Assembly: GCA_021790655.1 (NCBI GenBank)
Contig: JAJYGR010000001.1
Span: 1 to 42,429, forward strand
Source of the DNA: Acidobacteriota bacterium
Lineage (GTDB): Bacteria > Acidobacteriota > Terriglobia > Terriglobales > Acidobacteriaceae
DNA length: 42,429 nucleotides
Reading direction: 5' to 3'
Part shown: positions 13,555 through 34,768 of the stretch, piece after piece
How the letters are laid out: each line of letters opens with the position of its first letter
Numbering within the stretch: the stretch's first letter is position 1
Translations under genes and position numbers: made by a program
Notes under the pieces: generated by a model
What the model was told of the DNA's origin: nothing
The model's database searches: none
Seen by the model: the letters and a program-made list of their open reading frames with translations, nothing else

Positions 13555-13782
13555 GTCCTGCCTCCCTTCTATATCCTGTAATATATCTGGTGAGTGTCTT
13601 CATTCGCAAGGAAATCACGTCCTGGCGTCCTGGCATTGGACTTGAAGACTTGTCCAGGAGACATATCCGATCTAATTGTGGGGGGCAACAGGTTATTCCG
13701 ATTCAAGCTTGATCGTTGTGGGAAGGAGCGAGGCCCCTACTCGCGTGAAGTTGGTGCCAGTTGGAAAGCCGACAATGGGGTT

Positions 13783-15772: not shown

Positions 15773-15917
15773 GGGGGAACCTCCGAGCAGAAATCAGGCT
15801 CCTCTAACTGTGAGCCGCGAGAAAGAAGGTTGCTCTGTCTTCAGGATAATCATCCCTGGCAAGTTTGGTTGTTACAGCCTGATGGCCGGCTTGCCGCTCA
15901 GCGGCTTAGAAGAACAA

Positions 15918-17419: not shown

Positions 17420-17461
17420 TGGATTCTCCTTGCGAAAAGTCGTTCATAAAGACCGAGCAAC

Positions 17462-18742
17462 TTACGGAATACAAAAAAGCGTCTTCATTAAAATCGCGGC
17501 TCCAATAGAAAGCAGCAAGGCTATGGGCATGGCTACCGCGCCAACCTTGAGGAACCGCCAGAAACTGACATCGAGCTTCTCCTTGCGCAAGGCAAGGAGC
17601 CACAGAATCGTTGCCAGCGATCCGGTGATCGAGAGGTTTGGTCCCAGATCGACGCCAATCAACACGGCATTCGCGATCAGGTCCTTGGCATGCGCGGCCT
17701 GCAATGTTCCGCCAGCAATGAGTCCGAGGGGAAGGTTGTTGACGAGGTTGTTTGCGACACCTACGGAAAAGCCCGTCACCAGAGCGCCTGCCGCAGGCAC
17801 GAGTCCTTGCACCCATGCCAGCCATGTCTGTGTTAGCTTCAGCGCACCGATACTTTCCACGGCGTCGACCATGACGAAGAGCCCAGCCACCAAAGCCAGC
17901 GTTCCCCAACTGATCTCGCGTGCCAGCCGCACTGGATTGCTGCGTGATTTGATGGACACGGCGGCGGTAATGGCCAGAGCAGCCAGGCAGGTCGGCAGGC
18001 CCAGGTCCTTGCCGAGAGAAGATGACGTGAGCAGTACAAGTACCATCGCTGCTATGCCACCGAGCACCAGCTTGCCGTTACCATTCAGCGGCTTCGACGC
18101 AACTTCGCATTCGAGCGAGGTACAGAGTTCTTTCCGAAAAAGCCACCGCATAACGGCGTAGGTCGCGGCAATCGAAAGGACGGATGGAACGTCGAACGAA
18201 AGCAGCCACTGTCCCAGCGGAGGCATGCCGGTGCGAAAAACCACCAGGTTCGCGGGATTGGAGATGGGCAACACAAACGACGCCGCATTCGCGATGAGAG
18301 CGCAGATGAATAGGTAGGGCAACGGCTCAACTTTGGCCTTGCGTACTGCTGTAAGAATTGCCGGCGTCAGCACCACTGCCGTCGCATCGTTGGACATGAA
18401 GATAGTGACTACGGTGCCGATACCGTAAACAAGGGTGAACAGCCGCGAGCACGATCCGTTTGCGTTTCGCACAGCGACCGACGAGAGCCAGTCGAAGACC
18501 CCGTATTCGCGCGCCAGTTCTGAGAGCACCATCATGCCGATCAAAAAGAGATATACGTCCGTCCCCTCCGCAACTGCCCGGCCTGCGAGCTGCAAGGGAA
18601 CCAGGCGCAGCAGAAGCAGTAAAAGCGCACCCCCACCAATCCAGTAGAACTCCGGGATACCGCGTGGACGGATAAGCATCAGCGCGATACTGACGGCCAC
18701 AATGAGTGGCAGCAGAATATGCGCCAGCGCAGGCGATATCAT
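17462..18742 (-). CDS. ArsB/NhaD-superfamily permease (arsenical-pump-like / anion permease)
   Basis: The 426-aa polytopic product contains GTDVYLFLIGMMVLSELAREYGVFDWL...IFMSNDATAVVLTPAIL...ANAASFVLPISNPANLVVF, which matches the ArsB/NhaD pattern. Confidence 0.8.
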   Translation of the reverse strand: MISPALAHILLPLIVAVSIALMLIRPRGIPEFYWIGGGALLLLLLRLVPLQLAGRAVAEGTDVYLFLIGMMVLSELAREYGVFDWLSSVAVRNANGSCSRLFTLVYGIGTVVTIFMSNDATAVVLTPAILTAVRKAKVEPLPYLFICALIANAASFVLPISNPANLVVFRTGMPPLGQWLLSFDVPSVLSIAATYAVMRWLFRKELCTSLECEVASKPLNGNGKLVLGGIAAMVLVLLTSSSLGKDLGLPTCLAALAITAAVSIKSRSNPVRLAREISWGTLALVAGLFVMVDAVESIGALKLTQTWLAWVQGLVPAAGALVTGFSVGVANNLVNNLPLGLIAGGTLQAAHAKDLIANAVLIGVDLGPNLSITGSLATILWLLALRKEKLDVSFWRFLKVGAVAMPIALLLSIGAAILMKTLFCIP

Positions 18743-19675
18743 CTACCACTTTCTCCCGTTCTTGTTCGGTCCCAATTGCGTACCCAGCAAGCCGTGCTCT
18801 GGCCAAGCCGCAAGTGCATTGTCCTGGTCGCGGTCGAATCTTTTTCTCGGTAGCATGACTGCGGCACCCACGGGCACTCGGATAGCGTCCTCTGCTGCCC
18901 TTCCGTCGGCATCTTCTGCATGTACCCGGAGCGAGTACACGCCTGACAAATGATTGGCAGGAAGGATCCCTTCCCAGACTTGGCTGCCCGTGATCCGTTG
19001 AAGTTCCAAGTTCTGCTCTGCGAAAGTCGCATGAACGCGCTGGATTTCGGTGTTACTCCAAACCTTGGCGCGGACACGAAGACCATCTCGTGCAGGACGG
19101 TGAACCAGGCTGGAATCTGTCATGAGGCGTTCGTCGCTCGGCGACGTAATCATGACCGCCGGCAGATCTCCCAATTCAAAAAAGCGCCAGCTTACAAATC
19201 CACCGTCTATATTTGTGACGGAGAAGCCGACCGGGCCTTCTTCGATCTGCCCTGTCGATCGAGTCGCTGTGTAGAGGGTTCGGCCGTCGTTGGCAATCTC
19301 GTTGTAGTGAGTGTGACCCATGTCGATCAACTGCACGTTGTACTTTCTCACGAGATCACGTAATTCTTCACTTCCGGCCTTCAGATCGCTGGGATAACAG
19401 TGCAGGAGCAGGATCTTGCCCTGCCCGCGGGCGCTCGCATTTTCAAGCTGTCCTTCGAGCCATTGCATCTGTTGCGACAGCATGGCAAAGGACCTGGGGT
19501 CTGGTATATCGAATGCGTTCATCGCAAGAAACCGCGTGTCACCCACCGCGAAGGCGTAGTGTGTCAGTCGCGCTATCGAGTCGAGAAAGTTTTGAAAGCT
19601 CTTCGCATGCACGTCATGGTCACCGAGGATCGCGCACCACGGAGCCCGCAGCCAGTCGAGTGACTGGCGCACCAC
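18743..19675 (-). CDS. Metallophosphoesterase (calcineurin-like), apparently lacking the N-terminal DxH motif
   Basis: The motifs ILGDHDVH, LLLHCYP and MGHTHYNE are present. The GDxxDDG motif (SHSFVYLPGDIADDG) lies upstream of the only listed start (GTG 19675), in the same frame. That frame is closed by a TAG about 30 codons further up, and there is no ATG in between. Confidence 0.7.
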   Translation of the reverse strand: MVRQSLDWLRAPWCAILGDHDVHAKSFQNFLDSIARLTHYAFAVGDTRFLAMNAFDIPDPRSFAMLSQQMQWLEGQLENASARGQGKILLLHCYPSDLKAGSEELRDLVRKYNVQLIDMGHTHYNEIANDGRTLYTATRSTGQIEEGPVGFSVTNIDGGFVSWRFFELGDLPAVMITSPSDERLMTDSSLVHRPARDGLRVRAKVWSNTEIQRVHATFAEQNLELQRITGSQVWEGILPANHLSGVYSLRVHAEDADGRAAEDAIRVPVGAAVMLPRKRFDRDQDNALAAWPEHGLLGTQLGPNKNGRKW

Positions 19676-19739
19676 CGCGTAGGCGGCACGACTGCCATCG
19701 TCGGCAATGTCTCCGGGCAGATATACGAAGCTGTGCGAC

Positions 19740-20276
19740 TCAGGAGGCGGAGAGCTTGAGACGTTCCACTCCGTCCGCTATTCTGTGGGGCCCATGCTGC
19801 TTCACGTCTGCCAGAGCGTCAGCCGTACGCGCAAATTCGAGCGCCCGATAATAATCGCCGCGCTTCAGCGCCTGGCTCGCTTTTTGCAGAGAATTCTTGT
19901 AGATCGCAATCAAGGCTTCTTGGCGCTCACCTCCATGCTCCCAGTGCTCCTCGGCTTTGCGGACCAGACACTCGAACTCATCCGTGACCGCACTTCCTAG
20001 GTCCTTAGCAAGTTGAGAGCTTCTTGCATTTTCACTGGCCGGTGCAGCAAAGTTCAGGTGTTCTGCCGCTCGGAGAAGCTCAGCCGCTTCCTTGATGTGG
20101 CCGCTCTGTAGTTCTTGCCGGGCCAGCGCGGCGAGCACGCTCACCTCTTCGGCGGGAGCCGGTTTGAGAGATCGCTGAAGAATCTCTACTCGGCCCATGT
20201 GCTCGTAGGCACGGCGCAGGTCTTTCGCTTCGTGACGGTTTTCGGCATGAAGTTTCGCGGCCTTCTTAGGGGGCAT
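19740..20276 (-). CDS. Hypothetical helical protein
   Basis: An AAGGA RBS precedes ATG 20276 (MPPKKAAKLHAENRHEAKDL...). The product is predicted all-helical (TPR-like pairs: GHIKEAAELLRAAEHL, GDYYRALEFARTA). No family was recognised. Confidence 0.5.
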   Translation of the reverse strand: MPPKKAAKLHAENRHEAKDLRRAYEHMGRVEILQRSLKPAPAEEVSVLAALARQELQSGHIKEAAELLRAAEHLNFAAPASENARSSQLAKDLGSAVTDEFECLVRKAEEHWEHGGERQEALIAIYKNSLQKASQALKRGDYYRALEFARTADALADVKQHGPHRIADGVERLKLSAS

Positions 20277-20528
20277 GGATGAATCCTTTCTCTGGGTAGT
20301 GCGTGAGATGCGAGAGATGGAGGCGCGGCGCATGGGCAGATTGTGCGCCGCATCCTGTCACTGGACCGGGTCGCTAAGATAAAATTCACGGCGGTTACCT
20401 CTCGCCCTTGGTTAAAGCACCTGCCATGCCATTCCGCGACAAAGATAGATGGCTTTGATTTCAAATACCTTGCGAGCAGAGGAGGAATCCATAGGGTGAA
20501 TCATTGACCGCTATCCACTCACCAACCG

Positions 20529-20633
20529 TGTACGCTTAGCGGACACTATACTCACCCGTAATCCCCGTCTTCACTCGGAAACGCACGAGACACAGCAGAT
20601 CCGCTGCCTGGGGATAATGGAATTTGAGTTGCA
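20529..20633 (+). promoter_or_regulatory. Sigma54-type promoter with upstream 17-bp dyad (kinase/regulator operon)
   Basis: The -24/-12 element is TGGaatttgagTTGCA at 20618-20633 (GG-N10-GC), about 30 nt before ATG 20664. The dyad TGTACGCTTAGCGGACA is at 20529-20545, centred 82 bp upstream of the GG. An extra half-site TGACCGCTA is at 20505-20513. Confidence 0.6.
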
Positions 20634-20663
20634 TGAACGTTATCGGAGCCTAGAGGAACCAGC

Positions 20664-22349
20664 ATGCAGGAGCATCGCCAAAGAACTCACATTGCAAAGC
20701 TTCTTTGGGGAAGTCTACGATCGCGCATTCTTTTGCTTGCTGTCCTCACCTGCCTGTTCCTCGCGGGCGCAGCGTTCAGCTTCTTCGCGTTCCTTCGCAG
20801 CAGCCATGCCGCTACGCTTTCAGCGGCGGAGAGTCATCTGGTCAATGTGGCCACTAGTCTCGCTCGCAACTATACCGAACACGCAGCCACCACGCTGTCT
20901 CTGCGCTCGGTTCGGCCGCTTCCACCGATGCACCCACCACCACCACCTCCGCCGCCCGGCGCGAGCGCTCCGTGGCCACCACCCCCACCTCCTCATCCAC
21001 CCGCTCCCGATCCGCTCGCCCAGCTTACGGCGCAGACCCTACGACAGGAACCTGGCATCGAAGGAGGATTTTTCGCTGCCGCCTCCAATACTCTGCTCGG
21101 GTACGCATTCCCCACGCATGAGGGTCCCGGACCCAGCAGGGTGATGCCCCTACGCGAACGCCCTACTATTGAGAGTCTGGTGCACGATGCTGTCGCGACT
21201 GGCTCCACCAAGACCTTCCGCTTTGAAGGGCCTCACGACGCCGTTCTCTTTGCGGCCGTGCCCATTTGGGAGTCGCAGGTTGGCACGCAAACCGCAAGCG
21301 CATCGGTTCCAGAAATCACCGGGGCGGTGTGGCTCATGGAGCGAATACCCGGCATCAACCGAGGACGCAACCGCCAACTTCTCTTCGGCAGTATTGGCTT
21401 CGGCGCCGCTGCGCTCATCACGGCCCTGCTGGCCTTTTTCGTTACAACGGAAGTTCGCAGCGGCGTGAACTCCGTTCTCGCGCACCTGGGAAGTCTCGAA
21501 GGCGGGTTATCTGGAAAGGTTGCCCAACCAACTGCTCGTCCTCCATTGGAGGAGTTCGATCGCGTGCTCCGTGGCATCGACGTGCTTGCGTTATCGCTGC
21601 AACAGAAGATTGAAAACGAGCGAGCGCTGGAGGCCCAGGTGCGTCACAAGGAGCGCCTCTCCGCGCTGGGACAGTTTGCCGCCGGCATTGCCCATGAGTT
21701 GCGCAATCCGCTGGCAACGATTCGCCTGCGGACACAGTTGACCCAACGCGCAAATGCCGACGCTGCAACCCAGAAGAACGCGGCTGTGGTTCTCGAAGAG
21801 ATCACGCGGCTCGACGCGATGATCGAACGTCTGCTCTATTTCTCGCGACCGATTCAACTCGTGATTCAGCCGACGGACTTGAGCGCGCTTTGCAACACGC
21901 TATTGCAATCGTGGTCGGGCCGCTTACACGAGGCGGGAGTTGAATCTGAATGTGCTGGCGCGGACCATCTGGAATGCGCCGTTGATAGCCCGAAGTTCCG
22001 GCAGGTGCTTGATAATCTCGTCTCCAACTCGTTGGAGGCTCTGCGGGAAAGTTTCAGACAACCAAGGAAAATTACGATTCGTCTCTCCGCCGAGGACCAT
22101 TTCGCTCAACTTCAGGTTGAAGACAACGGACCGGGACTTACTGCGGAAGCGCAATCGAAGGCATTCAATCCATTCTTTACGACGAAAGACCGGGGAACGG
22201 GACTGGGGCTATCGATCGCTTACGAAATTGTGAAGGCCCACGAAGGAGAACTCCGGCTGGAGAATCGAGCGGAGGGTGGCGCCGTCACAACCGTGCGGTT
22301 GCCGCTCACACGGAACTGGGAGGACTTGGGGACAGCAGATGAGCGATAA
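20664..22349 (+). CDS. Sensor histidine kinase (two TM helices, periplasmic domain with poly-proline insert, HAMP-like linker, HisKA, HATPase_c)
   Basis: The H-box is LSALGQFAAGIAHELRNPLATI. The N and G boxes are VLDNLVSNSLEAL, VEDNGPGL and GTGLGLSIAYEIV. The periplasmic stretch is PPMHPPPPPPPPGASAPWPPPPPPHPPAPDP. Confidence 0.9.
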   Translation: MQEHRQRTHIAKLLWGSLRSRILLLAVLTCLFLAGAAFSFFAFLRSSHAATLSAAESHLVNVATSLARNYTEHAATTLSLRSVRPLPPMHPPPPPPPPGASAPWPPPPPPHPPAPDPLAQLTAQTLRQEPGIEGGFFAAASNTLLGYAFPTHEGPGPSRVMPLRERPTIESLVHDAVATGSTKTFRFEGPHDAVLFAAVPIWESQVGTQTASASVPEITGAVWLMERIPGINRGRNRQLLFGSIGFGAAALITALLAFFVTTEVRSGVNSVLAHLGSLEGGLSGKVAQPTARPPLEEFDRVLRGIDVLALSLQQKIENERALEAQVRHKERLSALGQFAAGIAHELRNPLATIRLRTQLTQRANADAATQKNAAVVLEEITRLDAMIERLLYFSRPIQLVIQPTDLSALCNTLLQSWSGRLHEAGVESECAGADHLECAVDSPKFRQVLDNLVSNSLEALRESFRQPRKITIRLSAEDHFAQLQVEDNGPGLTAEAQSKAFNPFFTTKDRGTGLGLSIAYEIVKAHEGELRLENRAEGGAVTTVRLPLTRNWEDLGTADER

Positions 22350-23736
22350 GATTCTGGTTGTAGACGATGATGTCAATCTCCGGCGGACGCTCCGGGATGT
22401 TCTTGAGTCAGCCGGCTACGAGGTGGATGAGGCCGAGAATGGCCTAGGGGCGCTTGCACATCTCGATCAGGGGCCTTCCGATGCGGTCCTCTGCGATTGG
22501 AAGATGCCCGGGCAAGGCGGCGAGGGTTTGCTGCGGGCACTGATGATCCGCGAACCTGCGGAACAACTGCCTGTAATCATCATGACTGCACACGGCACTG
22601 GCCCCAATGCCATCACGGCGATGCAACTGGGCGCCTACGACTTCGTGACCAAGCCATTCGACATCGATGAGGTGCTCGCGACGGTACGACGCGCCCTGCA
22701 GCATGTTCGCCTGCAACGTGAGGTGGAACAGTTGCGCAATCACGAGCAGGAATCGCTGACGGCCATCGAAGAGAAGGAACACCGCCTGGTAGGCATATCC
22801 CGTGGGATGCTCGAAGTCTTCAAGTCCATTGGCCGCGTCGCAAAAACCGATGTGACGGTTCTGCTGCAAGGCGAGACGGGCACAGGCAAGGAACTTGCCG
22901 CATGCACCATTCACGAAAGGAGCTTCCGCAGCCAGCGCCCTTTTGTCGTTGTCAACTGCGCGGCGCTTCCTGCCGAATTGCTGGAATCCGAGTTGTTCGG
23001 TCACGAAAGAGGTGCCTTCACGGGTGCGACCAACCGCAAGCTCGGCAAATTCGAGAGTGCTTCCGGCGGGACTGTTTTCCTGGATGAGATTGGCGAACTT
23101 CCTCTGACGTTGCAGCCGAAATTGCTGCGTGTATTGCAGGAGCATACTTTCGAGCGTGTGGGTGGAACGGAATCCATTCATGCGGATTTTCGGATCATTG
23201 CCGCGACCAACCGTGTGCTCGAAGAAGAAGTCGAGGAAAAGCAGTTTCGCTCCGATCTCTACTATCGGCTGAAGGGTTTCAGTATCCAGTTACCCGCTCT
23301 GCGTGAGCGGCGCTCGGACATTCTGCCACTCGCCGAATACTTTCTGACCAGATTCAACCAGCAAAATCAACAACATGTCCCCGGATTTACAGAAGATGCG
23401 ATTGTCTTGCTGCAGCAGTATTCCTATCCCGGCAACATCCGGGAGTTGGAACATATCGTCGAGCGAGCCGCAGTCGAGGCTGCGGGACGCGCCATCACCA
23501 GGGAAATCGTCTCCAAGGCGCTTCCGGCTTTTGAATCTGGCCCGATAGAAACCACCTTGACTGGACTGCTACGCCTTCCGTTTCATGCGTCGGTTGCCGC
23601 ATGGGAGAAACGCCTGATCGAAGACGCCCTGACGGAAAGCGGCGGCAATAAAGCCGACGCTGCGAGAAAACTTCAGATTCATCGCAGACTTCTATACGAG
23701 AAGATGGAACAGCTAGGAATTGGGAAGCCTGAGTAA
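22339..23736 (+). CDS. Sigma54-dependent response regulator (NtrC family: receiver, AAA+, Fis-type HTH)
   Basis: The receiver is KILVVDDDVNLRRTL...DAVLCDWKMPG. Walker A is GETGTGKE. The sigma54-contact loop ERGAFTGAT (GAFTGA) and ESELFGHE are present. The C-terminal HTH is NKADAARKLQIHRRLLYEKM. I chose the start at ATG 22339, which overlaps the kinase stop. Confidence 0.92.
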   Translation: MSDKILVVDDDVNLRRTLRDVLESAGYEVDEAENGLGALAHLDQGPSDAVLCDWKMPGQGGEGLLRALMIREPAEQLPVIIMTAHGTGPNAITAMQLGAYDFVTKPFDIDEVLATVRRALQHVRLQREVEQLRNHEQESLTAIEEKEHRLVGISRGMLEVFKSIGRVAKTDVTVLLQGETGTGKELAACTIHERSFRSQRPFVVVNCAALPAELLESELFGHERGAFTGATNRKLGKFESASGGTVFLDEIGELPLTLQPKLLRVLQEHTFERVGGTESIHADFRIIAATNRVLEEEVEEKQFRSDLYYRLKGFSIQLPALRERRSDILPLAEYFLTRFNQQNQQHVPGFTEDAIVLLQQYSYPGNIRELEHIVERAAVEAAGRAITREIVSKALPAFESGPIETTLTGLLRLPFHASVAAWEKRLIEDALTESGGNKADAARKLQIHRRLLYEKMEQLGIGKPE

Positions 23737-23742
23737 TGATTC

Positions 23743-24057
23743 CTAATTTGACCCGTGGCGCAAGTCATCGACCATTTTCAGATACTCATCCCGATTGATT
23801 TCTCCCTTGGCATAGCGTTCGGCCGCAACCTGTATGCCCGCGCTTGCCACCGTTGGGCGAGAACCGCTGGCGTTCTTGCGGATAAATCTTTGCGCGCGAG
23901 GCCACAGGAGAACCGCCCCGATGAGGATCAATCCCCAAAAGACAACCTGGTCGAGCCCCGGCCCCAAACCGAGCGGCGGCCCAATGGGGCCGACGGCACA
24001 GCCCCCTTCAAAGATGAGTAACGAGAACGAAGCGACGATGAATACCAAATTCCTCAT
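23743..24057 (-). CDS. SHOCT-domain membrane protein
   Basis: There is an N-terminal hydrophobic segment followed by Cys (FSLLIFEGGC), a second TM helix, and a C-terminal AAERYAKGEINRDEYLKMVDDL, which is the SHOCT motif. Confidence 0.7.
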   Translation of the reverse strand: MRNLVFIVASFSLLIFEGGCAVGPIGPPLGLGPGLDQVVFWGLILIGAVLLWPRAQRFIRKNASGSRPTVASAGIQVAAERYAKGEINRDEYLKMVDDLRHGSN

Positions 24058-24119
24058 GACAACTCTCCTTTACGGGTGATCGTTCCTGTCGTTCGTAATG
24101 CGGCTTGCCATTTTCTCGC

Positions 24120-24656
24120 TCACGGCAAACGCACGACAAGGCCCGTGCTGATTGTTTTCGGGTTGAGACTGCTACCCATTTTCGGGTTGAGGTTGCTGCC
24201 CAGACCTGAAACTCCGCCGTAGCTGAACTCCACCACGCGCCAATCGATACGAGGCAGAATCGTCATATCCAATCCTCCTAAAAACTGATATTCAAAATCT
24301 GTGTCGGTTTGTTTCGCAACACCCTGCCCAAACTGGGTATGGCCAACCCCGATTAGGGCCTCCGCATAGGGCTGAAAAGGCAGTACATGGGGTATAAAAA
24401 CCAGCCGGGGACCGGCCAGGCCGCTGTCAAGTGTGGTCGAGCCAGTACCGAGAAATGCGGCGCGGAGGTCGATCCCAGCACCGAGGAACGGAACATGCCA
24501 GGGATCGTAATATGCTCCCAATGTAGGACCATACAGCCAACTGGTGTTTGGCCGATTGATCTCGGCCGTGCTGAACTCGCCATACACGCCAACCTGGGCC
24601 ATCGCGCCGAGTGCCGAAACGAGTAGCAGCAGTGGAGAGAAGCGTAACCATTTCAT
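24120..24656 (-). CDS. Small outer-membrane beta-barrel protein (OmpW/porin-family-like)
   Basis: I chose the start at ATG 24656. The signal peptide is MKWLRFSPLLLLVSALGAMAQ. Alternating beta-strand pattern runs throughout (YGEFS, GAYYD, GIDLRAAF, PYAEALIGVG, EYQFLGGLDM, VVEFSYG). Confidence 0.7.
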   Translation of the reverse strand: MKWLRFSPLLLLVSALGAMAQVGVYGEFSTAEINRPNTSWLYGPTLGAYYDPWHVPFLGAGIDLRAAFLGTGSTTLDSGLAGPRLVFIPHVLPFQPYAEALIGVGHTQFGQGVAKQTDTDFEYQFLGGLDMTILPRIDWRVVEFSYGGVSGLGSNLNPKMGSSLNPKTISTGLVVRLP

Positions 24657-24681
24657 TGACTGCCTCCTTTGAAAGTAGGAC

Positions 24682-25338
24682 TCATTGTAGTGGCGGTGGT
24701 GGCGGTGGAGGTACAGGTCCGCCAGGTGGAGGTGGCGGTGGTGGAGGTGATCCTGCAGGCGCACCTGTCGGTGGTGGCGCAGATGCAAAGGTCTGCTGGT
24801 TCGCAGTTACACTTTGCGCGAAAAGCGTCGTTTCGCCGCCGATCGCCTGTTGCTGTCCGCTTACCTGAATCAACGTGCCTCTGTTCAAAACGCCGCGCAG
24901 TTGTATTCCTAAATCTGGCGGAACACTCACGGCCACTCCATCGCGCAGTGTGAGCCCCTGCACCTCACCCTGTGGCCCATAAATGATGGTGCGCACATGG
25001 CTCGTGCGGGTGACAGGCGCCCCACCTGCGACTAAGCCAGCAGTAGCTGTTGGTGGCGGAGCGGGTGCATACCCAACAGGCGGCGGTGGCGGCGGTGCGC
25101 CGTATTGCGGAGGAGGAGGAGGAGGTGCACCGTATTGCGCTGGCGGAGGAGGAGGTGGCGCACCATATTGCGCTGGAGGTGGCGGCGGTGGTGGACACGT
25201 GCATGGTTGGGCCAGAGCTGGCGGTGGAGGGGGCGGTGGAGGTGGAACTGGCCGACAACCCGTGACCAGCAGAAGGCCCACCCCTGCTAACAACATGGAG
25301 CACATGGATGCGGTGATCGATTGCGAATGTAGTTTCAT
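24682..25338 (-). CDS. Poly-proline lipoprotein A (paralog of 25343-25966)
   Basis: The lipobox is LLLVTGC. Then come PPPPPPPPPP, three QYGAPPPPPP-type repeats, a beta-rich core (VRTIIYGPQGEVQGLTLRDGVAVSVPPDLG...GTLIQVSG) and a C-terminal PPPPPPPPGGPVPPPPPPP. I chose the start at ATG 25338. Confidence 0.7.
   Translation of the reverse strand: MKLHSQSITASMCSMLLAGVGLLLVTGCRPVPPPPPPPPPALAQPCTCPPPPPPPAQYGAPPPPPPAQYGAPPPPPPQYGAPPPPPPVGYAPAPPPTATAGLVAGGAPVTRTSHVRTIIYGPQGEVQGLTLRDGVAVSVPPDLGIQLRGVLNRGTLIQVSGQQQAIGGETTLFAQSVTANQQTFASAPPPTGAPAGSPPPPPPPPGGPVPPPPPPPLQ
25081..25197. repeat. Tandem repeat of about 30-33 nt (3 units) encoding (A)QYGAPPPPPP
   Basis: On the plus strand the units read ...ggtgcgccgtattgcggaggaggaggaggag / gtgcaccgtattgcgctggcggaggaggaggtg / gcgcaccatattgcgctggaggtggcggcggtggtgg. 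Two related units occur in the neighbouring gene at 25393-25440. Confidence 0.85.
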
Positions 25339-25342
25339 GGTG

Positions 25343-25966
25343 CTAGCTCCTTGAAAATCGTTCAGACCCCCTGCGTGACTGTGGCGGCGGTGGTGCACCG
25401 TATTGCGGTGGCGGAGGCGGCGGTGGTGGCGCACCATATGGAGGAAGCAGTGGAGGCGGTGCGACTCCATTCGCTGTCGGTGGCGGCAGAGGTGGAGGTT
25501 GCGGTGGAGCTACAGCAAGATCGCCCGGAGGAGGTGCGGAAGGAGCTGTTGCGGTCACCGATCCGATACGTCTTCCGGCAGCTTGTGCGATAAGCTGCGC
25601 AGTCATCACCGTGCGTCCTGACACGGAAGGATGCAGTGCTCCGTAGATATTCACACGAGTTCTTAGCGGTGGAATGATGCCTGAGAAGTTGTCCGGCAGA
25701 TCAATCAATGTTCCGTCATCGAGCAGGAAGCCATTGAGCCTTCCATCTTCCGCATAGTTCAGTTGGCGGATGCGTCCCCGCGCTGTGTAGTTCGCGGTCT
25801 GAAGTTGTGTAGGAGCAGAAATTGCCGGATTTGGCTGTACTGTCTGGGGCGCGTTCGCTGCGGATGTATTTGGCGGTGCCGCGGGTGCGGGCGCTTGACT
25901 CGCGCAGCCAGCGATGGAAATCAGAGCCAGGACTGTAGGCACGAAGAGAAAAGTCCTTAATCGCAT
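25343..25966 (-). CDS. Poly-proline lipoprotein B (paralog of 24682-25338)
   Basis: The lipobox is LISIAGC. The core is GRIRQLNYAEDGRLNGFLLDDGTLIDLPDNF...RTRVNIYG. The tail is Pro-rich: PPQPPPLPPP...YGAPPPPPPPPQYGAPPPP. I chose the start at ATG 25966 (G6 RBS); an alternative ATG is at 25984. Confidence 0.7.
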   Translation of the reverse strand: MRLRTFLFVPTVLALISIAGCASQAPAPAAPPNTSAANAPQTVQPNPAISAPTQLQTANYTARGRIRQLNYAEDGRLNGFLLDDGTLIDLPDNFSGIIPPLRTRVNIYGALHPSVSGRTVMTAQLIAQAAGRRIGSVTATAPSAPPPGDLAVAPPQPPPLPPPTANGVAPPPLLPPYGAPPPPPPPPQYGAPPPPQSRRGSERFSRS

Positions 25967-25994
25967 AAGGCGCCCCCCATTCATCCGTGGATAA

Positions 25995-26098
25995 TGCACG
26001 GCTATTGCCAAACGCACAGATTTCCGTTGTGTCCGCGATTCAACAAGATGCATGCAGACGACGCAGATCGAAAGCCATTGTTGACCGCTAAGCGGACA
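25995..26098 (-). promoter_or_regulatory. Sigma54-type promoter with upstream 17-bp dyad (lipoprotein/OMP/SHOCT operon)
   Basis: Read on the minus strand, TGGCAATAGCCGTGCA (26010-25995) has GG-N10-GC. The dyad TGTCCGCTTAGCGGTCA (26098-26082) is centred 81 bp upstream of the GG. The predicted TSS is near 25985. Confidence 0.6.
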
Positions 26099-26189
26099 AT
26101 GGCATGTGACAAAAGCGAACAGAAGATAGAAAGAGCGCCCCAGCTCCGGCAGGAATGGATCAACAGACTTCACCTCCGAACTGCGGATG

Positions 26190-29129
26190 CTAGAAGTTGA
26201 AGTGAGCCTCCAGAAAGATGCTGCGGTTGCCACCTTCAGGCGGCGTGAAGGGGCCGGTAGCCAGCGACTGCGATTTGAAACGCAGAGACGGTGGCGAGGT
26301 AAGCGTGCCGTTCGGCGTGCCTAAGTTCTGATGGTTGAAGACATTCGTGAACATGGCCGCGAAGGTCAGGCCGTACCTGCGAGAGACAGTCGTATCCATC
26401 TTGCCCGGACCTGCGGGACCGCTGCTTAACCCGCCAGGTCCGAGTCCACCCGGATCTCCGCCCGGCGGAGGCGGTGGAGGCCCGCCAGGTTCGCCGCCGG
26501 GTTCGCCTGTCACGCGCGGACCAATGCCGATGATTTTGCTGATGTGGAGATTCAGACCAACATTGGAAGGCCCAGTGCCGAAGCCATAAGGAATAATCTT
26601 TTCGCTGGTTCCTATGGGTTTGGCATCGAGGCAGCCATAAGGCGTGGACACATATTGCGCCGATGTGCCACAACGGGCCGGGTTTGCCATCGTAGGCCGC
26701 GCATTGAATTGGTTGTTGCCGGTAAGGTCGCTGCCAATGGTGATGTTGTAAGGCGTGCCGGAGTTATAGCCGAAGAAGGGCGATACCTGGAAACCATACG
26801 GCGCTGAGATGTTTCCGATGATGTTGATGCGGTTGTGAATGTCGAAACCTGTGCGCCCATCGTCGAACCCAGGGTCCTGCGCGACCGATGGCACATACGC
26901 GACGCCGCTCGTATCGCCTTTCGCATTGTTATAGATGTAAAAGCCGAAAAGACTGAAGCGGCGGTAGCGGGCTGTCCCGGTAAGGATGATCTGGTGCTGG
27001 CGATAGACACCTCCCGATTGATATTGCATCAGGTTTTTGGAAGCTGCCGGTAGCGGCTGGCTTGGATATGTGTTGAGAGTCACTGTGGAAAATGGCGGCG
27101 CTCCGATATTGTTGGTCAAGTATTGATGCACGCCACGCGAGTAGAGGTAGGTGATATTTCCAGTAATGTTCTTCGCCACCTGACGGTCGATGCCCACCGC
27201 TGCCTGCATGTCGTTGGCGACGTGAAAGTCTCTCGCGATGCTGTATTGGGTCAGTGCACTTTCACTAGAGGTTGGATTCGGCGGCTTGATGGCGATACCG
27301 GGACTTGTCTCCTGATAACCCGCAGGATCGGTTACCGTGTAGCCGACTTGGTTGACTCCGTTCTGGTGGATTGCGGTGGTGATGTAAGGCGTGCCCGCAG
27401 TGGAATCGAAGCTGTTTGGCACCGTGAAGCGCTGATAGAACCATCCGTATCCCGCGCGCAACACAGTTTTTGCCGGCTTTCTGCGGGTCGCATGCCCAAG
27501 CGCATAAGCAAAGGAAATGCGCGGCGCCCAATCACTTTTGTCACTGATGCGGTTCTGCGATTCCCAGCGCAGTCCGTAGCTGAAGGTGAAACGCGGGTTG
27601 ACCTTCCAATCGTCCTGATAGAAGAGCGCTGCGTCGAGGACCATCACGCGAGCCGTGTATTTTTTGACTACAGTCACGGCGTACTTTTGCGGTGCTCTGG
27701 CCAGATAATCCGCCGTCGACTGGAATATGTAGGAACCATTGGTTTCGGCGTTCGTGAAATTCGTGTCATCATAGGCGCGCAGGCGTCCGCCGAAGTTCAG
27801 CGAGTGATTGCCCTTGGCTGCCGCGAAGGAGTTCTGCAGCTCAAAGTCGTCCTGGCTGTCATCCACGGCTCCGGAGTTGCTGCCGCCATCGGTGAATGCG
27901 CCCTGCACCGTGACGGTGGGCGAGGTATTCTGCGCAACTTGCTGGCTGCGGATGCGCCGGTACTGGAAGCGGATGTCATCGACGACATTCCTGCTCAAGA
28001 CAAGGCTGTCGCTTAACTGAAATTTGTGTTCGAGGTTGTGCGTGTTGTAGGCCTGCAAGGGCAGGCTTGTTTCTCCCACGCCCTGGTTCGTGTCTACCAC
28101 ACGAAAAAAGTCGTAACGAAGTATCAGCGTGTTTGTGCGGCCAAGCTGCAGATCAATCCGCGGACTCGCATCGATGCGGGAACTGGGATTGTTGAAAGGC
28201 TCGTTCAGCAGCGTTCCGTCTGGATTCGATGGGGTGATGCTGGACGGGTCCGCCGCATCCACCACCTGCACGCTTTGATGGTTGCGCGCAAATGCGCTGA
28301 AGAGGTAAGAAGCATTTGTTGAGAGAGGGCCGCCTACATTGCCGTCAACATCGTAGGAGTGATAGGCGGGTTCCGGGCCTATCAGAAGCGGGTTGCGCGA
28401 GTTGAAAGCCGAATCGTTGCCGCGGGAACCAATTTGCCCGTGCAGTTTGTCCGTGCCAGGTTTGGTGAAGATCTCAATGCGGCCATACCCAAGACGATCG
28501 AACTGCGCCGAGAACGGGTTTTGATTGATCCGAATTTCGCGAATGGAGGATTTCGGCGGAAGCTGCCCTCCGGTAAAGTCATCGATATAGATCTCGCCGC
28601 CATTCGGTCCGGCGGACGGACCCGCCAACGCCTGCAATTCATTCAACAACTCGTCAGGGTCGTCGGAAAGCGCGTCGAGGTCCTTGCCCTGGATGACGAT
28701 TGCGTTGGCATTGCGGCTGGGACTGGTGCTGACAGCTTGGCTCTCATCGCTCACCGTGACTTGTTGCTGCTCTACCTGAATGGAAAGTGCGAAATTCAGT
28801 TCTGTCGATTGTCCCCTGACAACTACGACATTCTGCGCCTGAAACGGAGCGAATCCTGGCGCTGTCACCGTCACACTGTAGATGCCTGTCGCAAGTCCGC
28901 GCATGGCGTAAGTGCCCGTTGCATTGGAGGTCGCCGTCGTGGTCTGCCCCGTGGTTGAGATGACCTTGACAATCGCATTCGGAATCACAGCGCCGGAAGG
29001 GTCTGCCACCTGGCCTCGAAGCGTTCCTGGGTTTCTCCGTCCTGTCTGCGCAGGCACAGAATGCAGGCCAACGATCAGAAGCGCGAGGATCAGGAAACAG
29101 AAACAACGGACCGCTTGATGAATCTGCAT
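26190..29129 (-). CDS. TonB-dependent receptor with N-terminal carboxypeptidase-regulatory-like domain
   Basis: The 979-aa product has a signal peptide and a CarboxypepD_reg-like domain (GTLRGQVADPSGAVIPNAIVKVISTTGQTTTATSNATGTYAMRGLATGIYSVTVTAPGF). It has a plug (IVIQGKDLDALSDDPDELLNELQALAGPS...IEIFTKPG), a long barrel and a terminal ...FLEAHFNF. Confidence 0.88.
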   Translation of the reverse strand: MQIHQAVRCFCFLILALLIVGLHSVPAQTGRRNPGTLRGQVADPSGAVIPNAIVKVISTTGQTTTATSNATGTYAMRGLATGIYSVTVTAPGFAPFQAQNVVVVRGQSTELNFALSIQVEQQQVTVSDESQAVSTSPSRNANAIVIQGKDLDALSDDPDELLNELQALAGPSAGPNGGEIYIDDFTGGQLPPKSSIREIRINQNPFSAQFDRLGYGRIEIFTKPGTDKLHGQIGSRGNDSAFNSRNPLLIGPEPAYHSYDVDGNVGGPLSTNASYLFSAFARNHQSVQVVDAADPSSITPSNPDGTLLNEPFNNPSSRIDASPRIDLQLGRTNTLILRYDFFRVVDTNQGVGETSLPLQAYNTHNLEHKFQLSDSLVLSRNVVDDIRFQYRRIRSQQVAQNTSPTVTVQGAFTDGGSNSGAVDDSQDDFELQNSFAAAKGNHSLNFGGRLRAYDDTNFTNAETNGSYIFQSTADYLARAPQKYAVTVVKKYTARVMVLDAALFYQDDWKVNPRFTFSYGLRWESQNRISDKSDWAPRISFAYALGHATRRKPAKTVLRAGYGWFYQRFTVPNSFDSTAGTPYITTAIHQNGVNQVGYTVTDPAGYQETSPGIAIKPPNPTSSESALTQYSIARDFHVANDMQAAVGIDRQVAKNITGNITYLYSRGVHQYLTNNIGAPPFSTVTLNTYPSQPLPAASKNLMQYQSGGVYRQHQIILTGTARYRRFSLFGFYIYNNAKGDTSGVAYVPSVAQDPGFDDGRTGFDIHNRINIIGNISAPYGFQVSPFFGYNSGTPYNITIGSDLTGNNQFNARPTMANPARCGTSAQYVSTPYGCLDAKPIGTSEKIIPYGFGTGPSNVGLNLHISKIIGIGPRVTGEPGGEPGGPPPPPPGGDPGGLGPGGLSSGPAGPGKMDTTVSRRYGLTFAAMFTNVFNHQNLGTPNGTLTSPPSLRFKSQSLATGPFTPPEGGNRSIFLEAHFNF

Positions 29130-29335
29130 AGCCCTCCAGGAGAATCACAATCGGCAGTACGCCTGATGCGGCTCGGGTATTTCCAGCACCGCAACCTGTA
29201 ATTCAGAGGCTCCACAAGCTGGAATCAGCCTTGACGGTCTTGGCCCCGCATCCGGCTGGGCAAGCCAGTTCTGGAACTGCGGCACGAGAAAAGGCTTCTT
29301 TGTCGGCAAATCCTCCTCCCCACTCAGTCGGAGAA

Positions 29336-29439
29336 GGCACGGCTATTGCCAAAGGAGCGGATCAGCGTGAGACCTTCTATTCAACGAGATACAGATAGAA
29401 GAACATGCGGGATAGAAAATGCTGACCGCTAAGCGGACA
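29336..29439 (-). promoter_or_regulatory. Sigma54-type promoter with upstream 17-bp dyad (TonB-dependent receptor gene)
   Basis: Read on the minus strand, the promoter is TGGCAATAGCCGTGCC (29351-29336). The dyad TGTCCGCTTAGCGGTCA (29439-29423) is centred 81 bp upstream. The whole 125-bp region is a block-wise copy of 25996-26120. The leader to ATG 29129 is about 200 nt. Confidence 0.6.
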
Positions 29440-29533
29440 GCGAGCGTGGCAAAAGCGAACGGAATTTTCAAATCGAGGCAGACCCGGACATTCTTGACGC
29501 GCGCTTCGGTTCTTGCATGAGTGCGGTTGCGGC

Positions 29534-30487
29534 TCAGTGGTGTAGAACGAAGAAGAGGAAAACTCCGTAGGCAATGAAGAGTGCTATCGCATGGCGACGT
29601 ATTAAACGCTTGCGGGGAATCGCGAGTCCGATGACCAAAACCAGGGATGCGAGCATTGCCAGCAGCGGTAGGTGCAATTGATTCATATCCTGCAAGACGA
29701 GCGGATGGACGAGTGCAGCGGCTCCGAGCGTCATCGTAACGTTGTAGGCAAAAGACCCGACAACGCCAGCCACGACCGCTTCCGCTGCTCCGCGCCGGGA
29801 TGCCGACCACGCTAAGACAACCAGCTCAAAACCTGTTGCGAAACCGACCACCGTAAGGCCCAATTTGGTCTGTGTCGATTGAATGTGGCTGATGCGGCGC
29901 ACGGCCTCGACCAGCAAGGTTGCTCCCGCCGCCATCGCGAGCACGCCCGAAACAACAAAGATCAGGTCGAGGCCAACCCTTTTAGATCTGTCGGGGTACC
30001 GGTGAGCTTCCGCAAGCTCTCCCACTTCTCCTAATGTCGGCGGATGTCGCTCGACGATCCAGATCAGCACCACATAGACCAAATAGAGTATTACAAGAAT
30101 GGTCCCCTCGGGCCGGCTTACGTTCCCGTCCCAGGCAAACCAAGCGCCAATGACGCCGAGTGGCAGGCCGAGCAGTGCGTAGCGCAGAGCGCTTCCTGAA
30201 AATGGAAGCGGTGCGATCATCGCGCCAACGCCGAGAGCGATAAGACAGACCGTGACATTGGCTCCGATTACATCTCCCAGCGCAATACCCGGTGAACCGC
30301 GCAACGAAGCCGCCACCGCTGTTGCCAGTTCTTCAGGTTCCGCACCCGCAAGCAGCAGCGCCAGCGCGAAGCTGCTCACTCCTAAAGCGACAGCAGCTTT
30401 TCCAAGGTGTTCGGCGAAAGCCTCGGCTCCCCATACAATGGCACCGATGCCTGCGAGGAAGGCGATGAGCCATAGAAATGTCGTCAT
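29534..30487 (-). CDS. Ca2+/cation antiporter (CaCA family, YrbG-like)
   Basis: The 317-aa product has about 10 TM segments and an internal two-fold repeat layout (…LLLAGAEPEELATAVAA… / …VGFATGFELVVLAWSA…). GDVIGANV fits the family. Confidence 0.7.
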   Translation of the reverse strand: MTTFLWLIAFLAGIGAIVWGAEAFAEHLGKAAVALGVSSFALALLLAGAEPEELATAVAASLRGSPGIALGDVIGANVTVCLIALGVGAMIAPLPFSGSALRYALLGLPLGVIGAWFAWDGNVSRPEGTILVILYLVYVVLIWIVERHPPTLGEVGELAEAHRYPDRSKRVGLDLIFVVSGVLAMAAGATLLVEAVRRISHIQSTQTKLGLTVVGFATGFELVVLAWSASRRGAAEAVVAGVVGSFAYNVTMTLGAAALVHPLVLQDMNQLHLPLLAMLASLVLVIGLAIPRKRLIRRHAIALFIAYGVFLFFVLHH

Positions 30488-30565
30488 GAGTCAATACCTT
30501 TTACATCCAAAATGCTGAATCATGCTGATGACCCTCGTGTCCAACACCGCGTTGGGAGAAATGCA

Positions 30566-33500
30566 CTATCCTTCGTACCGGCGCTTTTCAAATCGTCCGA
30601 AGCGCAGCGCCAATGTAGGCAACACCAACAGATTGAGCGCTGTCGATGTAATCAACCCTCCAAGGATGACAATGGCGAGTGGCCCTTCAATCTCCTGCCC
30701 TGCGGCCCCGCTCCCGATGGCCAGCGGCAGCAGCCCGAGCGCGGTGACGAGCGCCGTCATCAAAATCGGAGCCAGCCTCTCTGAAGCCCCTTGGACGGCG
30801 GTTTCATATCCCCACTCCATCCCTTCCACTTCGACCAGATGCTCGTAGTGCGAGATCAGCATGATGGAGTTACGCAGGGTAATTCCAAAGAGAGTGACGA
30901 ATCCGACCATCGCTCCCAACGAAAGTTCACCGCCGCCGGCAAAGACCGCAAGGACGCCGCCGACCAATGCAAAGGGTATATTCACGAGCACAAGCAACAA
31001 ATTGTGCCAATTCATCAGAACGACGGAAAGCAGCAGTACGATTCCCAGCGCAGCCAGCAACGAGTGGACCAGCAGATCGCGGCGCGATTGCGCCTGGGCC
31101 TCCGCCGTCCCGGTGAACTGCACGTAATCTCCAGGGGCCAGATGCACTTTGGCGGCAATCTGCGCCTGGGCATTTTGGACGAATGCGCTCGTGTTGTTTC
31201 CCGCGACATTCAGCGTGATCGTCTGGACCCGCCGGGCGCCGTCATGCAGTATGTTGTAGCGGCCAGCCTTTTCATACACGCTCGCCAGTTTTCCGAGAGG
31301 AACGTAAATACCTTCCGGACTCTTGATGGGAAGTGCAGCGATGGAGTCCACACGGTTTCTATCTTTGGGCGGCAAAATCACCGACACGGCAAAGACTCGG
31401 TTTCCTTCGTAAATCTCTCCCACCTGCTGGCCCTGATATGCGGTTTGAACGTCCTGCAACACAGTCATCGGGTCGAAACCCCAATGCAGAAGTTCCGGCG
31501 CGCGAAGATCGACCGCCATCTCCGGCGTTCCTGGCGGGGATTGCATTTGGATGTCGGTCGCTCCCGGCACTCCGCTCAAGACGCGCGTGACCTGCTGGGC
31601 TTCTCGATCCAACTGATCGAGATCGTTTCCGTAAATATTGACGACCGTGGACGCGGTGTATCCAGAGATGGTCTCTTCGATGCGCTCGGTGAGAAAAGTA
31701 AGCACGGAAAAGCTCAACCCGGAAAACTGAGAGAGCGTGCTACGGATTTGACCGAGCGCCGCTTCCTCCTGCTCGCCACTCATGGGCTTCAGGTCTACGT
31801 CGATCTCGCTGTAATTCGGCCCCCAGGTGTCTTCGGACAGTTCGGCCCGCCCGACTCTCTGCGAAACGGACCTGATGAACGGAAATTTGTTCAGTGCCGC
31901 CGTCACTTCCCGGCCTATGCGTAAAGAGTCTTCGAGCGAGGTGCCGGGAACGGCGATCATATGCACGATGTAATGGCCTTCGCGAAGTTCCGGTAGAAAG
32001 CTGGTTGAGAAGAAGGGCAACGCCACAACGCCGAGAACAGTCAGGATCACGACGCCGCTCATGACGAGCCGTGGCGCACGCTCAATGCGCGCGAGCACAG
32101 CGCCATATCGCTTCTTGAGCCAGAGGACCACCGGAGGTTCGGTCGTGCGAATCTGACGATGACCCAGGAACAGCAATGAAAGCGCCGGAGTGACCGTCAA
32201 CGCAACAACCAGCGAGGCCAGCACAGAGAGAATGTACGCAATTCCTAACGGAGCGAAAAGCCTTCCCGCAACACCGGAAAGCGTGAGAATCGGCAGAAAT
32301 ACCAGGATAACGGCGAAGGTCGCATAGACCACTGCGCTGCGCACTTCGATGGAAGCATCGAAGACAACAGAAAAAACGGAGCGAGGATGCCCTTGTGCAG
32401 CATTCTCCCGCAGGCGGCGCAGAATGTTTTCGACATCGATGACGGCGTCGTCCACCACTTCGCCGATGGCTATGGCGAGGCCGCCCAGCGTCAGCGTGTT
32501 CAACGAATAGCCCATGTGGTCCATCACGGTGACGGCAATCAGCAGAGACAGCGGGATCGCGGTGCAGGAGATGGCGGCGGTGCGCAGGTCGAACAAAAAC
32601 AAGAAGAGCACGACGATGACAAACGCAGCCCCAAGCAGAAGCGAGTTACGCACATTATGCACAGCGATATCGATAAACTTTGCAGGCTTGAAGAGATCGG
32701 TGCGGATGACGATGCCTTGCTGCTGCAAGGCTGGATTCAACTCCTGGAGCGCCTTTTCTACCTGAGCACTGACATCGGCGGTGTTCGAGCCGTATTGTCC
32801 GGACACTACGATATCCACACCCGTCTTGCCCTCTATGGAAGCGGCCCCGAAAGGCGGCGCTGGCCCTTTGACAACGTTCGCCACTTGGCCTAATGTCGCG
32901 TTGGCTCCATTCTGGCGGACAAGCACGGTGGCGGCGATCTGAGCAGGCGTGAGCGACTGACCTTGCGATTGCAGAATGAGCCGCTGGTTCCCGTTCTCGA
33001 TAAATCCAGCGCCCAAAATTCCTGTGGCCTTCTGCGCCGCGGCGACGACATCATTGAGCGAGAGACCATAGTGGACGAGCTTGTCCGGCAGAAATTGAAT
33101 TTGAATCTGCTTTACTTCGCCGCCGAATATGGACACGCTTGCCACGCCCGGTACTGCAAGCAGACGGGGACGAAGGGTCCAGTCCGCTACCGTTCGCAGA
33201 TCCATCAGGGACTTGCTCTTGGAGGTCAGCCCCAGAACCAGCACCGTTCCCGTGGAAACCGTAAGCGGCGTCATGATGGGCGCCTGCACTCCATGAGGAA
33301 GCTGTGTGGCCACGGTAGCCAGGCGCTCGTTCACGAGCTGTCGGTCAAGGTAGATACCGCTGCTGTTCTTGAAGATCACCGTGATGATGGACAGACCCTG
33401 GATGGAGTTCGAGCGCAGCGAATCGATGCCGGTGACACCGTTGACAACGTTCTCAATCGGCTGCGTTACCAGCAACTCAACCTGCTCCGGGGAAAGACCG

Positions 33501-33661: not shown

Positions 33662-33682
33662 GGTGTTTTCCTCTGGCCTTTA

Positions 33683-34741: not shown

Positions 34742-34768
34742 CGGTGACTCCCTTTCGGACTCCTGTTG

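Follow-up and report, generated by a model that had tools for sequence, protein, structure and literature searches.

The 42,429-nt (42-kb) stretch of contig JAJYGR010000001.1 analysed here (the window), from a soil bacterium of the Acidobacteriota, family Acidobacteriaceae, carries a sensor histidine kinase and an NtrC-family response regulator beside genes for lipoproteins and a large outer-membrane barrel protein. This raises the question of whether the kinase/regulator pair controls these genes, and its own, through sigma-54 promoters. An earlier reading made from the letters of the DNA alone (the sequence-only reading) had proposed this from three GG-N10-GC promoters, each with a 17-bp dyad 81-82 bp upstream, and the coordinates, sequences and spacing of these elements were all confirmed. 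The locus is probably a sigma-54-dependent two-component regulon of four promoters, including that of the pair's own operon. The proposals that the adjacent regulator would act on the dyad and would control its own operon agreed with every computational test that was run.

Predicted promoters and paired enhancer sites

The 17-bp dyad (TGTMCGCTTAGCGGWCA) was present as exact matches at three places, designated A (upstream of the kinase), B and C (Table 1). With up to three mismatches and both strands counted, six strand-matches were seen in the window against 0.19 expected, none of 100 shuffles reached six, and no further dyad was detected in the 42 kb. Each of the three dyads lay 81-82 bp from the GG of a GG-N10-GC element facing a gene. 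In unrelated metagenome contigs the exact dyad was seen at least 120 times, and only one of these copies had TGG-N9-TGC at the right distance. Scanning metagenomes for the dyad was rejected as a way to delimit the regulon, since it returned chance matches in unrelated contigs, and it served only as a negative control.

Besides the three promoters already proposed, P_HK (kinase), P_lipoB (lipoprotein B) and P_OMP (barrel protein), a fourth, P_div, had been overlooked; it is divergent from P_HK. A matrix was built from 72 orthologous promoters, with the window sequences left out. P_div was its best match in the whole window (18.6 bits), and an equivalent promoter was found in ~40 related loci. 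TGG-N9-TGC was present at all four sites with GG and GC exactly 10 bp apart, the spacing that characterises sigma-54 promoters; in these, GG (-24) and GC (-12) belong to a TGGCAC-N5-TTGCW-like context, and transcription starts ~11-13 nt beyond the GC. This pattern is frequent by itself (45 in the window vs 31 expected), and the informative signal is therefore its coupling to the dyad.

The sequence-only reading had assigned a single dyad to each promoter; the dyads are exact, but each enhancer proved to be a pair of sites, as all three dyads have a second, weaker or degenerate site 22-23 bp upstream. The layout upstream of the kinase is symmetric, P_div being followed after 84 bp by site 1, after 23 bp by site 2 and after a further 82 bp by P_HK. 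For P_div the proximal site is site 1 (TGACCGCTATCCACTCA, 20506-20522), which for P_HK is the distal one, and the centre of the main dyad A is 107 bp from the GG of P_div. The left half of site 1 is identical to the dyad half-site, and the site aligns with a conserved TGACCGCAAT..GCTCA site of orthologous loci. The paired sites are at 81-84 bp and ~104-107 bp from the GG, positions conserved in ~40 loci and on proteobacterial plasmids. A positionally conserved upstream enhancer, as sigma-54 promoters require, is thus present in the form of putative sites for a bacterial enhancer-binding protein (bEBP).

Between enhancer and promoter, B and C share a block, ATC-N3-TTGA.T, that fits the integration host factor (IHF) consensus by eye at 7 of 9 positions and sits where bending-protein sites lie in classical sigma-54 promoters; it is a possible site for a DNA-bending protein. 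The mid-region block of Granulicella-type loci (CATCTGATCT) does not fit IHF.

Many dimeric regulators typically recognise palindromic 17-mers, and the dyads might instead serve as operators for a repressor or a sigma-70-type activator, the genes being read from sigma-70 promoters. No sigma-70-like hexamer pair was found in the four upstream regions when the E. coli consensus was scanned, from which acidobacterial sigma-70 promoters may deviate. Downstream of the sites only the GG and GC are invariant, at their fixed distance, and a site centred at about -105 relative to the start is in the position of an enhancer and not of an operator. We regard the sigma-70 explanation as extremely improbable.

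A search of Rfam over 19000-31000 (E up to 1) gave no RNA family, including in the long leader of the barrel-protein gene, and rpoN is not encoded within the 42-kb window.

Table 1. Positions of regulatory elements and genes of the putative regulon in the window (aa, amino acids; REC, receiver domain; HTH, helix-turn-helix; coordinates in brackets are in reading direction)
Feature	Position	Strand	Sequence	Remarks
P_div	20416-20431 (20431-20416)	-	TGGCATGGCAGGTGCT	predicted start ~20405; divergent from P_HK; GG 84 bp from centre of 20506-20522 site
Second enhancer site (site 1)	20506-20522		TGACCGCTATCCACTCA	read from sequence; centre 23 bp from centre of dyad A
Enhancer dyad A (site 2)	20529-20545 (read on +)		TGTACGCTTAGCGGACA	exact match; centre 82 bp from GG of P_HK
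P_HK	20618-20633	+	TGGAATTTGAGTTGCA	predicted start ~20643; second-best match in window, 15.5 bits
P_lipoB	25995-26010 (26010-25995)	-	TGGCAATAGCCGTGCA	predicted start ~25985; matrix 8.1 bits, rank 13
Mid-region block B	26038-26049	-	ATCTTGTTGAAT	~35 bp upstream of GG; AT...TTGA.T invariant in nine modules
Enhancer dyad B	26082-26098 (26098-26082, read on -)		TGTCCGCTTAGCGGTCA	exact match; centre 81 bp from GG
Distal site B	26105-26121 (26121-26105)		TGTTCGCTTTTGTCACA	23 bp upstream of dyad B; read from sequence
P_OMP	29336-29351 (29351-29336)	-	TGGCAATAGCCGTGCC	predicted start ~29326; matrix 7.9 bits, rank 14
Mid-region block C	29379-29390	-	ATCTCGTTGAAT	from nine-module alignment
Enhancer dyad C	29423-29439 (29439-29423, read on -)		TGTCCGCTTAGCGGTCA	exact match; centre 81 bp from GG
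Distal site C	29445-29461 (29461-29445)		CGTTCGCTTTTGCCACG	22 bp upstream of dyad C; sequence and alignment
Sensor histidine kinase	20664-22349	+		HisKA and HATPase_c; two membrane segments, periplasmic region ~190 aa
NtrC-family response regulator, sigma-54 activator	22339-23736	+		REC, AAA+ with GAFTGA, Fis-type HTH
178-aa all-helical protein	19740-20276	-		P_div target; lysine-rich N-terminus, no signal peptide, cytoplasmic
Metallophosphoesterase, 5'-truncated	18743-19675	-		Pfam/NCBIfam; probable distal gene of P_div operon
ArsB/CitMHS-like permease	17462-18742	-		Pfam/NCBIfam; probable distal gene of P_div operon
YdcZ drug/metabolite transporter (DMT)	16973-17419	-		Pfam/NCBIfam; probable distal gene of P_div operon
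Lipoprotein B	25343-25966	-		first gene after P_lipoB
Lipoprotein A, proline-rich	24682-25338	-		putative P_lipoB operon
Small outer-membrane barrel-like protein	24120-24653	-		putative P_lipoB operon
SHOCT lipoprotein	23743-24057	-		putative P_lipoB operon
Large outer-membrane barrel protein, 979 aa	26190-29129	-		CarboxypepD_reg (N-terminal) and OMP_b-brl_4

Conservation in Acidobacteriaceae and on proteobacterial plasmids

A genome scan with the kinase as query gave 63 related loci, mostly of Granulicella, Terriglobus and Edaphobacter, with kinase identity of ~57% (loci or genomes used singly for comparison are labelled L016, L018 and L064-L069). A strict search of these loci with the exact 17-mer of the window returned almost nothing, because the site sequence differs by clade; a relaxed consensus together with position recovered the sites. 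The architecture itself was kept, one example being TGACCGCAATTCGCTCA-N6-TGTGCGGATTGCGTACA with TGGCAGCCAAGTTGCA 80-86 bp beyond it. Both divergent promoters with two sites between them were found in ~40 of ~50 informative loci, 182-187 bp apart (187 bp in the window). The relaxed dyad TGTNCGN5CGNACA occurred 22 times in 1.15 Mb (the loci plus the window), 21 of them in the kinase-upstream region. When the kinase-upstream regions of 25 loci were aligned, the only invariant columns were GCA..CCA of P_div, bases of both sites and TGG..TGC of P_HK. The architecture seen in the window is conserved in ~40 Acidobacteriaceae loci, and the same circuit was found in the cultured strains Terriglobus roseus DSM 18391, Granulicella paludicola DSM 22464 and G. 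rosea DSM 18704.

Modules B and C were also present in L065, L069, L068 and L018, where they precede the orthologous lipoprotein B and barrel-protein genes, and nine enhancer-promoter modules from five genomes (these four and the window) were compared. The invariant columns fell in four blocks: the distal site (GT.CGCTT...CAC), the dyad, the ATC-N3-TTGA.T block ~35 bp upstream of the GG, and the promoter, in which TTTGG and TGC are invariant. Between B and C of the window the four blocks were identical at 57 of 62 positions and the filler at 28 of 65, which bears out the block-wise likeness noted before. All pairs of B-type and C-type modules together gave 78% identity in the blocks and 34% in the filler; over all comparisons the values were 78-92% and 34-43%, and the earlier suggestion that selection acts on the binding sites is thereby confirmed.

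B and C have the same promoter spacer, AATAGCC, which suggests a common ancestor for the two modules. Such common descent, the frequency of TGG-N9-TGC in the window and the modest matrix scores of B and C would all suit another explanation, namely that neither the likeness of B and C nor the repeated 17-mer is regulatory, both being only traces of a duplication or a small repeat element, and that GG-N10-GC arose by chance. Since the blocks keep their order and spacing before orthologous genes in four genomes while the filler has diverged, a bare duplication or repeat is unlikely. In addition, the modules always face a gene, and the metagenome dyads elsewhere lack the promoter. This explanation is therefore very improbable.

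A related form of the system was also found outside the Acidobacteriota. A protein search of plasmids detected homologues of the kinase that include part of its sensor domain (28% identity over residues 125-547), each adjoining a sigma-54 regulator. Plasmids of Methylocystis, Bradyrhizobium and Burkholderia carry the kinase, the regulator (42%) and tandem OB-fold homologues, the OB fold being that predicted below for lipoproteins A and B. Homologues of major facilitator superfamily (MFS), anion and YdcZ DMT transporters were 38-41%, 26% and 50% identical, respectively, and on the Methylocystis and Bradyrhizobium plasmids the three transporter genes come after the kinase/activator genes. The periplasmic OB-fold genes of the plasmids are preceded by predicted sigma-54 promoters with 17-bp dyads upstream: TGTCCGCTCGACGGACA in Methylocystis, 84 bp from the GG; CGTCCGCTGATCGGACG in Bradyrhizobium, at the same 84 bp and accompanied by a second dyad another 22 bp on; and in Burkholderia two TGTCGG-N5-CCGACA dyads, 61 and 93 bp from the GG. 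At the nucleotide level, no match to the window was found among PLSDB plasmids.

That the dyad type follows the kinase/regulator family across phyla is the strongest argument for binding of the dyad by the adjacent regulator. The dyad could also belong to a different sigma-54 activator encoded elsewhere, with the adjacent two-component system as its target, because the link between regulator and dyad is one of co-localisation and such bacteria, we assume, probably encode several NtrC-family regulators with a similar Fis-type HTH. Against this, the dyad travels with the kinase/regulator pair through ~40 Acidobacteriaceae loci and with the 42% homologues on alpha- and betaproteobacterial plasmids, and the recognition helix specific to the family (IHRRLLYEK; IHRQLLY in proteobacteria) and the outer dyad bases are conserved together. 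An activator from elsewhere is, in our judgement, distinctly improbable. Covariation between HTH and dyad is only suggestive, the helix being nearly invariant and the central dyad bases varying by clade.

The kinase/regulator pair, its predicted targets and the proposed circuit

The regulator had been read as a sigma-54 activator from its GAFTGA loop, and this assignment held. Pfam gave Response_reg (4e-28), Sigma54_activat (3.6e-70), AAA_lid_14 and HTH_8 (5e-12), and the translation contains both the GAFTGA loop and the phospho-acceptor Asp (DWKMP), so that from its sequence it has every domain of an NtrC-type bEBP response regulator. Its nearest solved relatives are NtrC1, NtrC4 and ZraR. 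It missed every NCBIfam equivalog cut-off, among them those of ZraR (371 vs 760 bits), AtoC (436 vs 714), NtrC (429 vs 559), GlrR (318 vs 763) and NifA (362 vs 529).

The kinase has the H-box His. Its core is closest to AtoS and ZraS, yet far below their cut-offs (ZraS, 166 vs 479 bits). Its periplasmic region contains a long proline-rich tract, PPMHPPPPPPPPGASAPWPPPPPPHPPAPDP (residues ~85-115, window 20900-21010). The kinase of Terriglobus roseus has a similar proline-rich tract, and the regulated lipoproteins carry poly-proline tails.

All regulated genes had been taken to encode envelope proteins. This does not hold, since the fourth promoter is predicted to drive the gene of a cytoplasmic helical protein of 178 aa. 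The start of this protein was set by 44 homologues, all beginning MP(P)KKAAK; a homologue search gave 88, all unnamed and restricted to Acidobacteriaceae, and the gene is syntenic in most related loci. It had no Pfam match. Its AlphaFold model (mean predicted local distance difference test score, pLDDT, 80) came closest to designed helical proteins in the PDB, but at E 0.28 these matches carry no structural meaning. The 178-aa gene probably heads an operon reaching 16973 (distal part, 16973-19675), and the order and tight spacing of the permease, phosphoesterase and DMT genes are shared with L064-L067. In most related loci, the neighbour of P_div is a lipoprotein-A-like OB-fold gene, followed by the genes of the 178-aa protein, an MFS transporter, the phosphoesterase and the ArsB-like permease; in the window, unlike most of these loci, the OB-fold genes are on the other side of the regulator.

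Judging from their tight spacing, the genes from 23743 to 25966 (minus strand) appear to form one four-gene operon. Lipoproteins A and B have a domain in common (E 1e-4). In the AlphaFold model of this domain (pLDDT 84), Foldseek matched only OB folds, those of ExoVII, LysRS and RPA (template-modelling score ~0.6, E ~2e-3), and an OB fold is thus predicted. When searched for exhaustively, the domain turned up in 369 representative clusters, where two to four tandem copies are frequent and fusions to proline-rich tails and a lipobox occur; the 87-aa domain of lipoprotein A alone as query gave no homologues, as it shares too few words with them. The Pfam scan reported no family for either lipoprotein, and hence no BOF match.

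The product of the P_OMP gene, previously called a TonB-dependent receptor (a class with an N-terminal plug and a 22-strand barrel), is an outer-membrane barrel protein, but no plug domain was detected in it by Pfam at E up to 0.01; a weak PF00593 match is on record for its relatives. The orthologue in L065, to which it is 82% identical, is preceded by the same module.

A circuit can be proposed from these results. The membrane kinase would sense a periplasmic or envelope signal and phosphorylate the regulator, which would then assemble on a site pair consisting of a strong 17-bp TGTnCG-N5-CGnACA dyad and the weaker site 22-23 bp away. By DNA looping, in which a protein that bends the ATC-N3-TTGAAT block may assist, the AAA+ domain of the regulator would remodel sigma-54 holoenzyme bound ~81-84 bp downstream of the enhancer. 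One enhancer would serve the divergent pair, P_HK giving autoregulation of the kinase/regulator operon and P_div expression of the 178-aa protein, on a transcript that probably also covers the truncated phosphoesterase, the ArsB-like permease and the YdcZ transporter. P_lipoB and P_OMP would be copies of one 150-bp promoter-enhancer module; the former would drive the operon of the OB-fold, proline-rich lipoproteins with the small outer-membrane and SHOCT proteins, and the latter the large barrel protein.

Several points weigh against the regulon as proposed. The dyad is assigned, provisionally, to the adjacent regulator from co-localisation and conservation alone. P_lipoB and P_OMP have GTGC instead of TTGC at -14/-12 and reach only ~8 bits, their low matrix rank being due in part to this replacement. 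The leader between P_OMP and the start codon (29130-29336) is ~197 nt long vs ~100 nt in L065 and L069, and the extra ~90 nt are an insertion absent from relatives. A 54-codon open reading frame in this leader (29145-29309) was regarded as spurious, because it lies mostly within the insertion and is not conserved. The divergent operon looks damaged: between 18743 and 20276 the MFS gene that lies between the 178-aa and phosphoesterase genes in L064-L067 and L069 is missing, and the phosphoesterase has 310 aa vs 387 in relatives, its Pfam match beginning at profile position 56. This region looks like a deletion inside the operon. Finally, L016, the closest relative (kinase 85%, regulator 87% identical), has GAFTSA instead of GAFTGA in its regulator and is without the lipoprotein/receptor cluster, in place of which (L016 887-6700) there are genes of an ArsC-like phosphatase, a methyltransferase, ArsR and an ACR3-like permease. 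This lineage may therefore be losing parts of the system.

These losses raise the alternative that the architecture is ancestral and no longer works in this genome. Remnants of the barrel gene point the same way: a 41-aa fragment in L018 (4600-4870) and the last codons (GNRSIFLEAHFNF) in L068 (7740-7790), both beside enhancer-promoter modules that are still recognisable. In the window, however, the kinase, regulator, lipoprotein and receptor reading frames are intact, the three dyads are exact, and the GAFTGA loop, phospho-acceptor Asp and H-box His are all present. A regulon in decay is accordingly judged improbable for this genome, and a working sigma-54 regulon remains the preferred explanation.

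What the kinase might sense is suggested by the neighbourhood. Metal genes are found near the system in several genomes: czcCBA and genes of a cation diffusion facilitator (CDF) and an Na/Ca exchanger in the window, ars genes in L016, MerR in L067 and a cation transporter on the Methylocystis plasmid. From this neighbourhood, the efflux-like divergent operon, the envelope nature of the other targets and the ZraPSR-like design, we suggest tentatively that the kinase responds to envelope or metal(loid) stress, with the OB-fold lipoproteins as periplasmic accessory proteins, as ZraP is for ZraS; this guess is possible, though doubtful. In the window, the regulon is flanked by a czcCBA-type resistance-nodulation-division efflux operon (30566-36220, minus strand) and the CDF gene (36694-37338), with no dyad and no sigma-54 promoter ahead of either.

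A broader conjecture, which we think unlikely, is that kinase, activator, periplasmic OB-fold proteins and the three transporters (MFS, anion permease, DMT) form one ancient, unstudied stress module of Acidobacteriota and Alpha- and Betaproteobacteria, often plasmid-borne. The proline-rich OB-fold lipoproteins would be co-sensors in the periplasm, with feedback on the proline-rich sensor domain of the kinase, and the 150-bp cassette would be portable, recruiting envelope genes such as that of the barrel protein by duplication.

Just upstream of the regulon, phage- or mobile-like genes (HTH_17, RNase H, Siphovirus Gp157, PIN) occupy 10696-16349 of the window, and ArdC, ParB and MerR genes stand beside the same operon in L064 and L067; the region may be on or beside a mobile element. 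Further away, at 1515-5090, a gene for an ECF-type (extracytoplasmic function) sigma factor is followed by genes of the MbnB/TglH/ChrH family (E 6e-108), DUF2063 and DoxX.

To our knowledge, almost nothing is known of gene regulation in Acidobacteriota, which are among the most abundant soil phyla. The locus offers a fully specified, testable circuit, with a sensor, an activator, a site consensus, four promoters and a list of targets. Its signal, if found, would give a role to the tandem OB-fold domain, the 178-aa protein and the linked MFS, ArsB-like and YdcZ transporters, which are widespread and unnamed, and the circuit would supply an inducible promoter system for Acidobacteria.

Comparison with known systems

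At glnAp2, phosphorylated NtrC, a REC-AAA+-HTH protein, acts as an oligomer from two adjacent sites ~100-130 bp upstream of the start and loops to sigma-54 holoenzyme. The regulator described here has the same domain architecture but is under the NtrC cut-off, and no nitrogen-assimilation genes were found nearby. NtrB is soluble, whereas the present kinase is transmembrane with a periplasmic domain.

YgiW-type BOF proteins are small periplasmic OB folds encoded beside qseBC and controlled by that two-component system. A predicted OB fold beside a two-component system is the common feature. The present proteins differ in having no Pfam BOF match and in their tandem copies, proline-rich tails and lipobox, and QseB is of the OmpR type and not a sigma-54 activator.

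The upstream activator site of NifA is TGT-N10-ACA. The site of GlrR (GlrKR/QseEF, glmY/glmZ) is TGTC-N10-GACA (PMC4987338). Both share with our dyad the outer bases TGT...ACA upstream of sigma-54 promoters. Here the site is 17 bp long (TGT-N11-ACA) and paired at 22-23 bp, with the proximal centre 81-84 bp from the GG, and the regulator falls below the cut-offs of both families.

The closest parallel is ZraPSR (HydHG) of E. coli and Salmonella, in which ZraR drives the divergent sigma-54 promoters of zraSR and zraP from a shared intergenic enhancer (PMC4987338). Both are NtrC-family systems with a divergent sigma-54 pair for the own operon and an accessory gene, and in most orthologous loci the gene beside P_div encodes a periplasmic protein. 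They differ in three ways: regulator and kinase are far below the ZraR and ZraS cut-offs; the divergent targets are not CpxP/ZraP/Spy proteins but an OB-fold lipoprotein in the relatives and, in the window, a helical cytoplasmic protein without a Pfam family; and extra promoters are present here for the barrel protein and the lipoprotein operon. The system thus resembles ZraPSR in design and is not a member of it. The sequence-only reading had held that no system of this composition is described, and searches of the literature on acidobacterial sigma-54 two-component systems, on this type of dyad and on metal-linked NtrC-type systems indeed gave no description of it; what that reading left out is the textbook, ZraPSR-like design. 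The mechanism will not surprise a specialist.

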